Notes under the pieces: model-generated
What the model saw: only the letters and a program-made list of their open reading frames with translations
The model's database searches: none
Told to the model about the DNA's origin: nothing
Shown here: piece by piece, positions 40,057-58,661 of the stretch
Numbering within the stretch: position 1 is the stretch's first letter
How the letters are laid out: each line of letters opens with the position of its first letter
From: Eubacteriales bacterium
GTDB lineage: Bacteria > Bacillota > Clostridia > Oscillospirales > CAG-382
Assembly: GCA_045595165.1 (NCBI GenBank)
Contig: JAZNZY010000001.1
Location: 467-64,466 of the forward strand
DNA: 64,000 nucleotides
Direction of reading: 5' to 3'
Position numbers and translations under genes: made by a program

Positions 40057-40180
40057 GTAGGGAATGGGCTTGCCCATTCCGTTGTGTGCGAACAGTTTGC
40101 GGGACGTCGAGGACGACGTCCCCTACGCAGTTGCCACGGCTGTTCGATAACCGTAGGGGATGACGTCCTCGTCATCCCGC
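40057..40180. repeat. Cluster of three alternating GTAG-type REPs
   Basis: GTAGGGAATGGGC-TT-GCCCATTCC; reverse GTAGGGGACGT..ACGTCCC; GTAGGGGATGA..TCATCCC. Confidence 0.85.
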
Positions 40181-53701: not shown

Positions 53702-53919
53702 ACGATAAATATACATTTGAGCAAGCCCTGGCACGTCTTGAAGAGATAGTAAAGGGATTGGAAAACGGTTCTCTGCCGTTGGATAAAAGTATTGAGCTGT
53801 TTGAAGAAGGTAACGCTTTGGTAAAGCTTTGCACACAAAAATTGGATGCGGCAGAGCAAAAGGTGCGTATTCTTACAGAAACCGCCACCGGTATTACGGA
53901 GAGTGATTTTAATGCGTGA
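53698..53919 (+). CDS. xseB: Exodeoxyribonuclease VII small subunit
   Basis: TFEQALARLEEIV, LDKSIELFEEG. Confidence 0.95.
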   Translation: MNDKYTFEQALARLEEIVKGLENGSLPLDKSIELFEEGNALVKLCTQKLDAAEQKVRILTETATGITESDFNA

Positions 53920-54775
53920 AATTATTGCGCAAAAGGTAAACGAATATTTAAAAAAATCCCTTTCCTGCCCATCGGATGCGGCATACAAAAAGCTGTATGA
54001 TTCTATGAATTATTCTGTTGATGCCGGCGGAAAGCGGATCCGCCCCTATTTATGCGCGGAATTTTACTGTATGCTTTCGGGAAGTGAAGATTTCACCCCC
54101 GTCATTCCCTACTGCGCGGCGGTGGAGATGGTACATACATCATCTCTTATTCACGATGACCTGCCTGCAATGGATAACGACGTATTGCGGAGAGGAATTC
54201 CCACAAACCACGTAAAATTCGGGGAAGCCACGGCAATTTTGGCGGGAGATACTCTGCTTCTCAAAGCTTGCCAAGCGGCGGCATCCAACCCGTATCTGGA
54301 CGGAAAGACCAACGCGGCGGCTTGTGCGCTTATTGCGAGAAAAAGCTGCGGTATGATGGCGGGACAGCAAATAGACCTGATATCATCGACTTTTTCTACA
54401 AAATTAGATGAACTTATACAGCTTCAATCATTAAAAACAGGATGCCTGCTTTCTCTTTCCTGTATGCTGGGCGCATTGGCGGCAGGTAAAGATCCCGAGC
54501 CTGCGGAAGCATTCGGAACCGTATACGGTCTGCTGTTCCAGATAACCGATGATCTTCTGGATTCCGACCCCGATTCCGACACGGGCAAAACCCGAGGCAA
54601 GGACGAGCGTGACCATAAAGCCACGTTTGTAACCCTGCTTGGCAGAGAAAAAGCGGAAAAAAGAGCAGACGATCTGCTTAAAGCCGCTATAAAAACGCTG
54701 GATTCCTTTGCTGAAAGCGAAAGCAAGCGCAGACTTACAGAGCTGTGCAACAAAACAAGATACAGAAAAAATTAA
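53912..54775 (+). CDS. ispA: Polyprenyl (farnesyl/geranyl) diphosphate synthase
   Basis: GGKRIRP, LIHDDLPAMDND, RRG, FQITDDLLD. Confidence 0.92.
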   Translation: MREIIAQKVNEYLKKSLSCPSDAAYKKLYDSMNYSVDAGGKRIRPYLCAEFYCMLSGSEDFTPVIPYCAAVEMVHTSSLIHDDLPAMDNDVLRRGIPTNHVKFGEATAILAGDTLLLKACQAAASNPYLDGKTNAAACALIARKSCGMMAGQQIDLISSTFSTKLDELIQLQSLKTGCLLSLSCMLGALAAGKDPEPAEAFGTVYGLLFQITDDLLDSDPDSDTGKTRGKDERDHKATFVTLLGREKAEKRADDLLKAAIKTLDSFAESESKRRLTELCNKTRYRKN

Positions 54776-54796
54776 CCTGCGAGAGCAGGTTTTTTT
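54774..54796 (+). terminator. Intrinsic terminator after ispA
   Basis: AACCTGC-GAGA-GCAGGTT plus T run. Confidence 0.75.
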
Positions 54797-54928
54797 GCAT
54801 CCTGCGGATGCGTGATATGTTGCGTACCGCAACGTGATATGAACACTCCGTGTTCGTGATATGCCACTGCGGGGCGTGATATGTTGCTACGCAACGTTTG
54901 GGTAGTTTTTTGCGAGAACGCAAAAAAC
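54797..54928 (+). repeat. G array copy 1: five triloop hairpins joined by GTGATAT, then an H-type core
   Basis: GCATCC-TGC-GGATGC, GTTGCG-TAC-CGCAAC, GAACAC-TCC-GTGTTC, GCCAC-TGC-GGGGC, GTTGC-TAC-GCAAC. Confidence 0.9.
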
Positions 54929-54950
54929 AATTAATTAAAATTATTGATAT

Positions 54951-55200
54951 GTAACGTCTGTAATAACTAAAAGTCTGATTGAAGCCGGCGGCTGTATAAA
55001 CAAACCAGAATGAATTTTCAGGCGCGGGGTGCTGTAGAAATCTACTGCCCCCCGACTGAAAATTTATAGAAAAACGCAAATAAAAATAAAAAGAAATCCG
55101 TATAAAACGGATTTCTACATTAAGATGAACAAAAAAGAAACGGCAAAGAAAAAAATCTTCTTTGCCGTACTTTTATTTATCTGTTTGCGTTTTTCGGTCT
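54951..55200 (+). repeat. L element variant (copy 8) containing the probable jag terminator hairpin (55140-55168)
   Basis: ATGTAACGTCTGTA extension, TTTTCAG..GCTGTAG-AAAT-CTACTGC..CTGAAAA, AAAAACGCAAA...TTTGCGTTTTT. Confidence 0.75.
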
Positions 55201-55221
55201 GGGAAGTTTAGACAGTCGCCG

Positions 55222-55863
55222 TTACTTTCGATTTTTTTCTTTGCCTTCCAGACATATTACTATGCGTCTTTCCGCATCCTGACCGATAGAATATGTAGCC
55301 ACGCCGGCGATCTTCTGGATCTCGGTATGGATAACACGTCTTTCATAGGGATTCATAGGCTCAAGAGCAAAGCTTCTCTTAAACTTGAGTACCTTTTCTG
55401 CCTGCTTCTGCGCAAGGCGGCGGAGGGTTTCCTCACGCTTTTCGCGGTAGCCCTCAACATCCAGCGTTATGCGGTAAAACCCATCGTAAACGCGGTTTGC
55501 GGCGAGGGAAGCGAGATACTGCAGGGAATCCAAAACTTCGCCGTGGCGTCCGATAAGCGAGCCCAAGCCCTTTCCGGATACTACGAGGGTAGCTTCGTCT
55601 TTCTTTTCTTCCTTGACGCTTACCTGGGCGGTAAGGCCCATATCACCCAAAACCTTTTCAACAAATTCAACTGCTTTGCTTGCGGGGGTTATTTGTATAT
55701 ATACTCTTACCTTTGCGTTGGAAGCGCCGATACCAAGGAAGCCCTTGCTGGGCTGCTCCAGCACCTCAAATTCAACGGAGGTAAGATCTGTGCCAAGCTC
55801 CTGCGCGCCCAATTCAACGGCGGCTTCGATAGTCTTGGCAGATACAATAGCTTCTCTTACCAT
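55222..55863 (-). CDS. jag: Jag/EloR (KhpB) RNA-binding protein
   Basis: Jag_N (AKTIEAAV...SKGFLGIG), KH (LIGRHGEVLDSLQYL), R3H (PMNPYERRVIH). Confidence 0.95.
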   Translation of the reverse strand: MVREAIVSAKTIEAAVELGAQELGTDLTSVEFEVLEQPSKGFLGIGASNAKVRVYIQITPASKAVEFVEKVLGDMGLTAQVSVKEEKKDEATLVVSGKGLGSLIGRHGEVLDSLQYLASLAANRVYDGFYRITLDVEGYREKREETLRRLAQKQAEKVLKFKRSFALEPMNPYERRVIHTEIQKIAGVATYSIGQDAERRIVICLEGKEKNRK

Positions 55864-55866
55864 TGC

Positions 55867-57276
55867 TTACTCCTTATCTGTCTTTTCGGTCTTTTCGTCA
55901 AGACCGGTAGAACGTTTTGCGGGAAGCTCGCTTTCGTCAACGGACAGCATCTTTATTCTTCTGGTGCCGGCAGCGGGCTTTTCTTCTTCGCCCTCCGCAG
56001 CATCGGAAACCTTTAATCCGTCATAGGAATGATCATCCTCGTCTACTTCGATAACGATCTTCTTTTTCTTCTTTGTCTTGGTTACTTCTTTAATAGCCGC
56101 CTTTATCTCTTCCTCGGTATAAGTGGGGATAGGATAAACCTTGGCGAAGATAAGCTGTTTACCCATAGAGAATACGCTTCTCCATACCCAGTAAACGCCC
56201 AGTGCCGCCTGGAAGCTGAATGCAAACCAAAGGGACATAAGGGGCATACCCCATTCCATCATCTTGCCGCCGGGCATCTTGACGGGGTTTCCGTCCGCAT
56301 CCAGATTCTGAGGCTGAAGCTTTCTGGAAAGCCAGGCAGACATAAAGGATGTGAGGAATACCAAAAGGGGAATGATAACCAGCCAGTTTATATTCTTTAT
56401 ACTGGGAGTATCCAGCAGGGATCTTCCGAACATAGAGTAATTGGGAAGTTCCTGAATAGCGTTATAATATACGTCGGTTTCTTCGTAATCGAAAGCGGTC
56501 TTGAGAATATCATCGGTAGAAGCGGAAAGAAATTCGCCGCAGAGTCCTTTTTCCTCAAGAGGTTCGCGGACGTACATATCGAAATACTCCGTCATTGCGA
56601 CCACGCGGTATTCGTTCTTTACGCTCTTTTTTGCGTCTTCGTGGATATCCTCGTCATCGCTGAAATAGAATGTATATTTATCCGCTTCCTCATCGTAATA
56701 GTACTTATCGCACATAGTCTTTTGGTACTCTGTGAGACCTGCGGAGAAATTCTTGATAAATTCTATCTTTTCCTGCTGTTCTTCGGAAGGCTCTTCGATC
56801 TTTAAAAGCTCATCCAATTCGTAATTTACCTGCTCCTTTACGGTTTCGCACAGCTCGATTGAATTTTTATACATTACGTTGAGCTGATCGTCATCCATAA
56901 AAAGGGTGTACTGCAGGGGCTGGCGTACGATACTGTAAAGTATCATAATAATGGGAAGCTGAATAAGGAGGGGAAGACAGCCGCCAAACATATTGTAGCC
57001 GTTCTTCTGATACATTTCCTGTATCTCCATATTCATTTGCTGCTGAGATTCTTTATCCGTTCTGTTCTTGTACTTGCGCTTTATGGCGATCTCCTTGGGA
57101 CGGAGAGTTGCCTGCTTAACGGAAGATTTCTGCTGCTTGATGGAAAGAGGCAAAAGCACAACTTCCATAATGAGAGAAAAAAGGATTATGGCTACCCAGT
57201 AATAATTCTGGCCTACCCAAAGACAACCCTTCATTACATACCCGAACGGTATGTAAAAAATATCCATAATGTTCAA
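55867..57276 (-). CDS. yidC: Membrane protein insertase YidC with a large insertion
   Basis: LPLSIKQQKS, GCLPLLIQLPI, ALGVYW; canonical position; 469 aa. Confidence 0.92.
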   Translation of the reverse strand: MNIMDIFYIPFGYVMKGCLWVGQNYYWVAIILFSLIMEVVLLPLSIKQQKSSVKQATLRPKEIAIKRKYKNRTDKESQQQMNMEIQEMYQKNGYNMFGGCLPLLIQLPIIMILYSIVRQPLQYTLFMDDDQLNVMYKNSIELCETVKEQVNYELDELLKIEEPSEEQQEKIEFIKNFSAGLTEYQKTMCDKYYYDEEADKYTFYFSDDEDIHEDAKKSVKNEYRVVAMTEYFDMYVREPLEEKGLCGEFLSASTDDILKTAFDYEETDVYYNAIQELPNYSMFGRSLLDTPSIKNINWLVIIPLLVFLTSFMSAWLSRKLQPQNLDADGNPVKMPGGKMMEWGMPLMSLWFAFSFQAALGVYWVWRSVFSMGKQLIFAKVYPIPTYTEEEIKAAIKEVTKTKKKKKIVIEVDEDDHSYDGLKVSDAAEGEEEKPAAGTRRIKMLSVDESELPAKRSTGLDEKTEKTDKE

Positions 57277-57309
57277 TTTTGTTTTCTCTTTTCTTTTTTA
57301 ATTTTTTTG

Positions 57310-57443
57310 TTTTTTGCATTTTTGCAAAAAACATACCGAAACGTTGCGAAGCAACATATCACGTGCGTGAAACGCACATATCACGAACACGGAGTGTTCA
57401 TATCACGTTGCGGTACGCAACATATCACGCATCCGAAGGATGC
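57310..57443 (-). repeat. G array copy 2 (inverted relative to copy 1)
   Basis: ATATCAC x4 between GTTGC-GAA-GCAAC, GTGCGT-GAA-ACGCAC, GAACAC-GGA-GTGTTC, GTTGCG-GTA-CGCAAC, GCATCC-GAA-GGATGC. Confidence 0.9.
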
Positions 57444-57668
57444 TCAACGCTTCCTTTTCGGCACCGGATCGTACCCGCCCTTGCAAAGGGGCTGGCAGCG
57501 CAAAAGCCGCCAAAGGCTTAAAAAAATGCCGATAATAACGCCCCATTCCTCGATCGCCTCGATAGCGTATTGAGAGCAGGTGGGATAAAAACGGCAGTTT
57601 GCCCCAAGAGAGGGTGATACGTGTTTTTGATAAAAGCGTATTGGTGCGGTAAAAATTTTTTTAAACAT
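57444..57668 (-). CDS. yidD: Membrane protein insertion efficiency factor YidD
   Basis: [31 protein letters not shown]. Confidence 0.95.
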
Positions 57669-58437: not shown

Positions 58438-58583
58438 AATGATGAATGAGAAATGATGAATGAGGAATTTCGGTACGTTTTTTGCATTACGCAAAAAACT
58501 TTTTTTGATTATTTAATTATTTAAAATTCGCGTGATGCGAATTTTTACCATAATTTCTCATTTCTCATTCCGAATTCCTCATT
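58438..58583. repeat. H element in the rpmH-dnaA spacer
   Basis: Heptamer arm, TTTTTTGC..GCAAAAAA, AAAATTCGC-GTGAT-GCGAATTTT, inverted arm. Confidence 0.8.
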
Positions 58584-58591
58584 AAAAAAAC

Positions 58592-58620
58592 TTGCTTTTT
58601 TTACACATAGATGTTATAAT
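58592..58620 (+). promoter_or_regulatory. dnaA promoter with a DnaA box in the spacer
   Basis: TTGCTT-17 bp-TATAAT (extended TG); TTTTACACA at 58599-58607. Confidence 0.75.
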
Positions 58621-58661
58621 ATAATATATATAACTATAACTATATATTATAGAGGTGAAAA

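Follow-up and report, generated by a model that had tools for sequence, protein, structure and literature searches.

The 64,000-nucleotide stretch of DNA analysed here (the window; from Eubacteriales bacterium, assembly GCA_045595165.1, contig JAZNZY010000001.1) carries, on either side of the gene pair jag-yidC, two arrays in which five different mini-hairpins of 5-6 bp with three-nucleotide loops are joined by four copies of a constant GTGATAT linker and followed by a core hairpin. The arrays are genuine and non-random, but their architecture is already known: they belong to the Gut-1 family (Rfam RF01706) and represent a lineage-specific form of it, in which a single arm is fused to the core of a heptamer-armed repeat family. 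They probably constitute a modular dispersed DNA repeat that turns over by recombination at the linker and by replacement of the arm and that affects transcripts incidentally, and the comparisons below make solo arms of a REPIN/BIME-like repeat the best reading, rather than elements dedicated to regulating jag-yidC.

Identification of the arrays as Gut-1 copies

Both arrays are matched by the RF01706 model (Gut-1 RNA), array 1 with 45.1 bits over positions 54832-54903 and array 2 with 37-44.7 bits. The Rfam gathering cut-off for this family is 50 bits, which places the window arrays just below it, and three sister copies elsewhere in the genome, which share this architecture exactly, lie above it with 65.6, 59.7 and 59.1 bits. 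The consensus of the model consists of three C-G-closed hairpins linked by GUGAAAU, and in the model alignment the linkers and three stems fit in both arrays. Gut-1 elements have at least three short hairpins on a GUGA(A/U)AU linker; here there are five stems and four linkers, and in the 315 hairpins from 107 arrays on which our hairpin statistics are based the stems pair (96% Watson-Crick) despite many different stem sequences. When the whole window was compared with Rfam no family reached its gathering score, CRISPR families included.

An earlier reading made from the sequence alone (the sequence-only reading) had described the hairpins, linkers and core base-exactly and had correctly noted that hairpin 4 and loops 1 and 5 differ between the arrays. 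Its placement of the array starts after the ispA terminator and the yidD stop codon agrees with the coordinates, with the gene identities given by Pfam; array 1 starts right 3' of the terminator of the ispA-like gene and hairpin 1 of array 2 begins one base past the yidD stop codon (57444-57446). Likewise, the two arrays do form an inverted repeat around jag-yidC, as had been claimed, over their first 67 nt (99% complementary). The architecture itself had not been recognised, and in this respect the reading was overturned by the match to RF01706, so that taken as a whole it is partly supported. There are eight exact CGTGATATG sites in the window, all of them inside the two arrays, and predicted folding is far stronger than for shuffled sequences, with z-scores of −6.3 and −5.4 for RNA and −6.8 for DNA.

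Gut-1 was reported in one sentence by Weinberg et al. 2010 (Genome Biol 11:R31, PMC2864571), with 43 representatives from the human gut only and from no sequenced organism, and was graded 'RNA: certainly' on covariation. The 2010 alignment (PMC2864571) already has GUGAUAU-linked hairpin strings that start past terminator hairpins; inverted strings with AUAUCAC linkers come next, the genes on either side being convergent. In Rfam RF01706 is filed as 'Gene; sRNA' with function unknown, and in the literature after 2010 no functional study of Gut-1 was found. The window arrays resemble the family in their strings of C-G-closed hairpins, UNC-type loops, constant GUGA(A/U)AU linker and post-terminator position in gut Clostridia. 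They differ from it in that the model spans three hairpins and the window copies five, and in that the window arm is single, without the mirrored AUAUCAC arm, and fused to the heptamer-repeat core. As regards the filing as an sRNA gene, the evidence presented here favours a DNA repeat. The family has stood in Rfam since 2010 with its one-sentence description and no organism, context or function, and the window places it in an assembled genome of Oscillospiraceae type. Three points are new in the present data: Gut-1 differs between near-identical genomes in entire units and entire arms, its arm is interchangeable with heptamer arms on a common core hairpin, and it has a specific candidate partner, the PF05635 four-helix-bundle proteins.

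Copies in the genome and in the order

The genome to which the window belongs comprises 2.05 Mb in 39 contigs (97% complete); its YidC shares 94% identity with the protein from an uncultured Oscillospiraceae metagenome-assembled genome (MAG), and other relatives are from ruminant caeca. It has at least 12 GTGATAT arrays of 3-6 hairpins each, and hundreds are present in the order, so the sequence-only reading's own counter-proposal, that only two copies exist as one old duplication, fails. The search it had proposed in this and related genomes showed that both the number of units (3-6 hairpins) and their identity vary. The arrays of this genome combine units of a common repertoire differently: the unit GCATCC..GGATGC leads in five arrays, GAACAC..GTGTTC is present in four, and the closing unit is either GTTGC..GCAAC or GCCGTG..CACGGC.

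Eight of these arrays, each with one arm and mostly preceded by heptamers that end in GAACTAT, are core-linked, and seven of the eight lie 3' of a gene on the same strand. All eight arms end in GTT[TA][CG]GGTA(A)G, after which comes the A/T-clamped core TTTTTTGC-loop-GCAAAAAA. Among the 78 strict cores in the genome, heptad arms (one or more) were found on 37 and a Gut-1 arm on 8. The heptamer-armed palindromic repeats of the same genome have the same A/T-clamped core and the same sites as the arrays, and the heptamers AATGAGG and GAACTAT occur in the position of the hairpin arm in relatives and before hairpin 1 in other copies. Words such as AATGATG double as hairpin linkers, whereas the heptad arms have no intercalated hairpins. 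Comparable known heptamer repeats are the STRR repeats of cyanobacteria.

In the order as a whole the motif was found in 68 of 151 genomes, with 1 to at least 29 copies each, and its distribution is patchy (44 of 97 genera), many matches being located at contig ends. A pattern scan of species-representative genomes gave more than 119 loci, chiefly in gut MAGs of Oscillospiraceae, Acutalibacteraceae and other Clostridia. For viral contigs, true hairpin arrays were present in just 4 of 119 pattern matches. The scan for fusions of arm and core (GTGATAT-N-GTTTCGGTA), in which chance matches dominated, gave one extra true case (L308) among 120 loci. Exactly four linkers were present in 90 of the 107 arrays.

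Hairpin arrays with other linker words were also seen in the window's genome, namely GTGAAGT, CATCAT/CATCGT (the reverse complement of the AATGATG heptamer) and TATGGAAT/ATTCCATA, at C9:3460, C19:154450, C21:2900-3650, C5:51305, C32:1623, C3:19106, C19:118774, C21:82000 and C21:143743 (C denotes the contig). This genome thus holds at least four types of linker word. Nearly every word contains TGA (GTGATAT, GTGAAAT, GTGAAGT, GTGATG, AATGAAG and heptamers like GAATGAG), and with a 7-nt or 22-nt period, e.g. at 54812-54882 in the window, this places a stop codon in all three frames, possibly by coincidence.

Turnover at orthologous sites

The two sites occupied by the window arrays were compared in related genomes (loci L001, L002 and L004, with L001 from the closest relative), and individual arrays were not conserved at the yidD-yidC and ispA-jag sites of the relatives compared. 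At the yidD-yidC site L001 has an equivalent of array 2 with four units, unit 4 being absent, and L002 (2925-2975) and L004 (2905-2965) have an unrelated GTAG-type palindrome, CCGTAGGGGATGACGTCC..GTCATCCC. At the ispA-jag site L001, L002 and L004 all have 3-4 heptamers (AATGAGG..., AACGAGA...) between the same terminator and a core of the same kind, and the window genome alone has the five-hairpin arm there, with conserved flanks. Since heptamers and hairpins occupy the same position with the flanks kept, the comparison indicates that the two kinds of arm are interchangeable at a fixed site and that the swap is recent. The GTAG-type palindrome of the L002 and L004 spacers belongs to a repeat family that is also present in the window (D18, e.g. 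at 40143-40180).

Units are shared between arrays as well. Hairpin 4 of array 2 (H4b) is the sole copy in its own genome, and two other arrays of the closest relative carry it, one of them repeating the order H3-H4b. For hairpin 4 of array 1 (H4a) no second copy was found in the same genome or in about 3 Mb of fetched loci, and H4a with its flanking linkers had no exact match in the scan of a metagenome collection. In L122 (2490-2976) a GTGATAT array with 22 linkers consists of seven tandem copies of a three-unit block of 66 nt, evidence that an array can grow by tandem amplification. Arrays 1 and 2 differ in ways that are explained if whole units are lost, gained and exchanged at the constant CGTGATATG junction of 9 nt, and a special unit-adding process is unneeded because H4b already exists in other arrays of the closest relative.

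Stem and loop composition of the hairpins

The stems of the 315 hairpins contain 1917 Watson-Crick pairs, 13 G.U pairs, 22 A.C pairs and 48 other mismatches, and the closing pair is C-G in 272 hairpins. An excess of G.U pairs, as expected of stems selected in GUGAUAU-sense RNA, was absent among these hairpins. The loops on the GTGATAT strand are of the form T..C (TTC, TGC, TAC, TTGC, TTAC and TTTC), and those on the complementary strand (GAA, GCA, GTA, GCAA, GTAA and GAAA) are of the GNA/GNRA type. In DNA, d(C-GNA-G) triloops form mini-hairpins of unusual stability. The arrays of other genomes typically have an intrinsic terminator (often a tRNA terminator) on one side and the -35 box of the following gene on the other, as judged from the promoters and terminators read from the listed sequences at the array flanks; such a stretch would be little transcribed.

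Association with PF05635 genes

Gut-1 arrays are linked both statistically and physically to genes for PF05635 (Avd-like) proteins. Of the 151 genomes compared within the order, 58 have both the motif and PF05635, 10 the motif only, 13 the gene only and 70 neither (odds ratio 31, p = 1.7e-18, Spearman 0.79, computed without phylogenetic correction). For a control domain of similar prevalence, rve (PF00665), the odds ratio was about 1, the motif being present in 29 of 65 rve-positive genomes compared with 68 of 151 overall. Among the 73 PF05635 genes recognised among the best 80 matches, about 45 (around 60%) have an array of a repeated 7-mer word at most 380 nt upstream, and these word arrays end 7-60 nt ahead of a good -35/-10 promoter of the PF05635 gene. 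The words form a family (GTGATAT/GTTATAT, GTGAAGT, GTGAAAT/ATGAAAT, GTGATG, AATGATG, AATGAAG, AATGAAT, TGAATTG and GCTAAAT) and follow the PF05635 protein tree with 25 changes compared with 44.5 in shuffles, none of 200 shuffles being as low. The PF05635 clades span host families, and several clades occur within one genome. In the four genomes with a sampled gene of the GTGAAGT clade, GTGAAGT arrays were present in all four and extra solo loci in three. At GTGATAT arrays a PF05635 gene is adjacent at only 4 of 96 loci, the pattern that would be expected of few master copies and many solo copies.

In the window's genome the sole intact PF05635/TIGR02436 gene is located at C17:598-951 (70 bits to TIGR02436), and its product matches PDB entry 2RLD (E = 3.5e-11), an entry with five chains. 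Directly 5' of this gene is a mirrored mini-hairpin array with the word GTATGTAAT in forward and CATACA in reverse direction (C17:330-951 for array and gene together, L136); a tRNA cluster with its terminator lies on the other side of the array. Contig C19 has two paralogous genes of RlmD/TrmA-family U5-methyltransferases, and 3' of each of them lie GTGATAT arrays with small cargo genes. The stop codon of the first overlaps the first linker, after which come a frameshifted PF05635 gene and a gene for a 176-aa membrane protein; the second is followed by an unassigned open reading frame (ORF) of 122 aa and a gene for a DUF2310 zinc-ribbon protein. Judged by this arrangement, the 3' end of rlmD-family genes resembles an attachment site for cassettes. 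Because the PF05635 gene beside the GTGATAT arrays of this genome is frameshifted, the window copies are probably relics. The C19 array loci are C19:89750-90500 and C19:106890-107080 (L134 and L135), and their cargo genes have one common leader, TCCGNCGNAGNCGGACAAAGAAAGGAG.

The genes beside the master arrays belong to the Avd family. Members of this family (PF05635/TIGR02436) are known as the accessory protein of diversity-generating retroelements and as ORFs in intervening sequences of 23S rRNA, and Avd itself forms basic, nucleic-acid-binding oligomers. No reverse-transcriptase gene was found near the C17 and C19 copies among the called ORFs, some of which were not Pfam-scanned.

Proposed mechanism

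The repeated unit is 20-25 nt long and combines one variable mini-hairpin with a 7-nt word, which is GTGATAT in the window arrays. Arms made of such units are fused in this lineage to the A/T-clamped core of a second family, whose usual arms are bare heptamer runs. The arrays lie at gene ends, beside terminators and before promoters. Those of close relatives differ by whole units, units are swapped between copies, probably with the constant linker CGTGATATG as crossover homology, and the whole arm can be replaced at a fixed site. We propose that what matters about the hairpins is their folding in DNA, either as single strands or as cruciforms, and that they do not serve as a dedicated RNA. It is conceivable, and we propose it tentatively, that the repeated word is recognised by the PF05635 four-helix-bundle protein encoded beside the 'master' copies. 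To this extent the suggestion of an iterated protein-binding array made in the sequence-only reading is a live idea, with indirect support from the association with PF05635 genes.

In a wider and equally tentative form, Gut-1 arrays and PF05635 proteins might be partners in the way of REPINs and RAYTs, each protein clade reading its own 7-nt word. The words (GTGATAT, GTGAAGT, GTGAAAT, AATGAAG and others) would be displayed in phase between mini-hairpins or as heptamer runs, and the solo arms in the window would belong to a dispersed non-autonomous population exchanged at fixed terminator-proximal sites. If the partnership is true, it would account for a class of unexplained intergenic sequence that abounds in Clostridia of gut and rumen, and also for the many stand-alone 'Avd-like' genes; if the clade-specific reading of words is also true, the result would be a novel kind of bacterial repeat system with a non-enzymatic oligomer that binds nucleic acid at its centre, and the Rfam 'sRNA' would be re-assigned to a DNA element. 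For annotation, the arrays should not be taken as gene-specific regulators of their neighbours.

Several observations weigh against a DNA repeat with a PF05635 partner. The orientation bias of the core-linked arms equally fits an RNA or transcription-coupled role, and array 2, presumably transcribed with the operon in which it lies, keeps a role as RNA in play. GTGATAT, GTGAAGT and heptamer arrays are all kept in this genome without an intact cognate PF05635 gene; the match between words and clades can be explained by plain co-inheritance of the gene and the adjacent array, and the co-occurrence statistics carry no correction for phylogeny. Moreover, no enzyme that moves the repeats was identified, PF01797 (Y1/RAYT) having no match in the 97%-complete genome, and to our knowledge a four-helix bundle is not a known recombinase.

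Alternative explanations

The most serious alternative, which we nevertheless consider unlikely, is that Gut-1 is a structured RNA and forms in the window a module of a 3' untranslated region or between cistrons, in which either the hairpins block 3'-to-5' exonucleases or the single-stranded GUGAUAU linkers bind or titrate an RNA-binding protein or are cut by an endoribonuclease. The grade 'RNA: certainly' given on covariation (Weinberg et al. 2010, PMC2864571) argues for it, as do the strong predicted folding, the position of core-linked arms after a same-strand gene (7/8) and the location of array 2 within an operon spacer that leaves no space for an additional promoter. It is weakened by the pair counts (13 G.U against 22 A.C in about 2000 pairs, without a G.U excess), by the loops, which are UNC/UNNC on the sense strand with the stable GNA/GNRA forms on the antisense strand, and by the position of the arrays, which usually begin past an intrinsic terminator or precede a -35 box. 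In addition, the arrays are not kept at orthologous sites, where unrelated repeats take their place, and they are multi-copy and break assemblies. A role of the arrays as operators or insulators in double-stranded DNA appears less likely still. They would then not be selfish repeats, and a PF05635 oligomer or another factor would bind the phased 7-bp words, 20-25 bp apart, and control neighbouring promoters or the topology between transcription units. This would fit the 7-60 nt between arrays and PF05635 gene promoters, the constancy of exactly four linkers (90/107 arrays) and the position in terminator-to-promoter and convergent gaps; however, no recognisable promoter adjoins the window arrays, binding of the duplex leaves the variable palindromes between the words unexplained, and the arrays turn over rapidly at orthologous sites.

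The sequence-only reading had also suggested template-driven addition of units and an inversion of the jag-yidC segment. A dedicated template-driven or fold-back process of this kind, giving a memory-like array, together with an inverted pair that mediates inversion of jag-yidC, is in our view very improbable. It would account for a unit 4 that is wholly different between arrays otherwise 99% identical and absent in L001, for the lack of a further copy of H4a in the sequences searched (own genome and about 3 Mb of fetched loci; with linkers, the metagenome scan) and for the fact that 3 of the 4 unit indels in the window's genome sit just ahead of the last unit. On the other hand, H4b is already present in further arrays of the closest relative and recombination at the linker suffices, plain tandem amplification is seen in L122 and no candidate enzyme was found. 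Inversion receives no support either, as the order and orientation of jag and yidC are identical in four relatives.

Comparison with known repeat systems

A close parallel is with the REP, BIME and REPIN elements of Proteobacteria, which are reportedly associated with RAYT transposases (Gilson 1991; Nunvar 2010; Bertels and Rainey 2011; Ton-Hoang 2012). The arrays resemble these elements in being mosaic strings of palindromes with short constant linkers, in their location at gene ends and in the variable number of units, as well as in having many solo copies, a few copies that flank a small protein gene and a repeat type that goes with the protein clade. In contrast to them, the arrays lack a conserved GTAG-type palindrome (5' GTAG foot), and it is the linker that is constant and the palindrome that varies. 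A cognate Y1/RAYT gene (PF01797) is absent from the genome, on which ground mobilisation by a RAYT was rejected, and the associated protein is instead a four-helix bundle without known catalytic activity.

Other systems fit less well. A CRISPR array was rejected, the constant part being 7-9 nt (23-50 nt in CRISPR) and the variable part a palindrome of 13-15 nt (CRISPR spacers are non-palindromic). Integron attC sites, of which each gene cassette has one, carry RYYYAAC ... GTTRRRY boxes at the foot of a single long imperfect hairpin, which are lacking here; GTGATAT and GTTATAT are direct phased repeats, the units are 22 nt and not 57-141 nt long, and the GTT/AAC ends face outward in mirrored copies. 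Attributions to attC-like sites, K-turns and UNCG tetraloops were likewise rejected by reasoning on sequence registers, which do not fit.

Genes and features around the arrays

The features of the region are listed in Table 1. From the gene arrangement, array 2 appears to lie in a spacer of an rnpA-yidD-yidC-jag operon in which an additional promoter for yidC would not fit, and it is therefore presumably co-transcribed with the operon; the stability or processing of the operon mRNA may be affected incidentally. Besides the genes listed, rnpA and dnaA (Pfam) are among the neighbours. On the minus strand, TTAATTTTTT comes after the hairpin of the ispA terminator.

Table 1. Coordinates of the two arrays, their components and the flanking genes (positions in the window; H, hairpin)
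Feature	Position	Strand	Basis or sequence
ispA-like polyprenyl synthetase gene, 5' of array 1	53846..54775	+	Pfam PF00348, 178 bits
Bidirectional intrinsic terminator of ispA	54774..54796	.	AACCTGC-GAGA-GCAGGTT plus T7; terminator scan on both strands and sequence
Array 1, H1-H5 with four GTGATAT linkers	54797..54895	+	sequence, CGTGATATG sites, Rfam Gut-1 match
Array 1 H1	54797-54811	+	GCATCC-TGC-GGATGC
Array 1 H2	54819-54833	+	GTTGCG-TAC-CGCAAC
Array 1 H3	54841-54855	+	GAACAC-TCC-GTGTTC
Array 1 H4	54863-54875	+	GCCAC-TGC-GGGGC, one A.G mismatch
Array 1 H5	54883-54895	+	GTTGC-TAC-GCAAC
Array 1 GTGATAT linkers	starts 54812, 54834, 54856, 54876	+	sequence
Terminal word variant GTTTGGGTA, arm-to-core joint of array 1	54896..54904	+	genome census of core-linked arms
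A/T-clamped core hairpin of array 1	54905..54928	.	GTTTTTTGC-GAGAAC-GCAAAAAAC; sequence, core census
jag/khpB	55222..55863	-	Pfam Jag_N, KH_KhpA-B, R3H
yidC	55867..57276	-	Pfam 60KD_IMP; orthologues L001-L004
Core hairpin of array 2	57309..57332	.	GTTTTTTGC-AAAAAT-GCAAAAAAC read on the - strand; sequence, core census
Terminal word variant of array 2, GTTTCGGTAT	57333..57342	-	sequence, core-linked arm census
Array 2, five hairpins with four GTGATAT linkers, yidD-yidC spacer, operon sense	57343..57443	-	sequence, Rfam Gut-1 match
Array 2 H1, same as array 1 H1 except for loop TTC	57443-57429	-	sequence
Array 2 H2, same as array 1 H2	57421-57407	-	sequence
Array 2 H3, same as array 1 H3	57399-57385	-	sequence
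Array 2 H4, GTGCGT-TTC-ACGCAC	57377-57363	-	sequence
Array 2 H5, loop TTC	57355-57343	-	sequence
yidD, stop codon abutting array 2 H1	57444..57668	-	Pfam YidD, 105 bits

The arrays lie about 1-4 kb from dnaA. A role as DnaA boxes or part of oriC was rejected, GTGATAT not being a DnaA box and the arrays occurring on many contigs and in many genomes. The YidC protein is long (469 aa) and is matched by 60KD_IMP in two separated stretches, a split that implies a large insertion in the predicted protein. Upstream of dnaA, at 58438-58590, there is a heptamer-armed core element (AATGATG AATGAGA ... TTTCGGTACGTTTTTTGC) that occupies the spacer in which rpmH would be expected, a place where oriC is expected as well; it is followed by AT-rich repeats of TATAAT type at 58597-58652.

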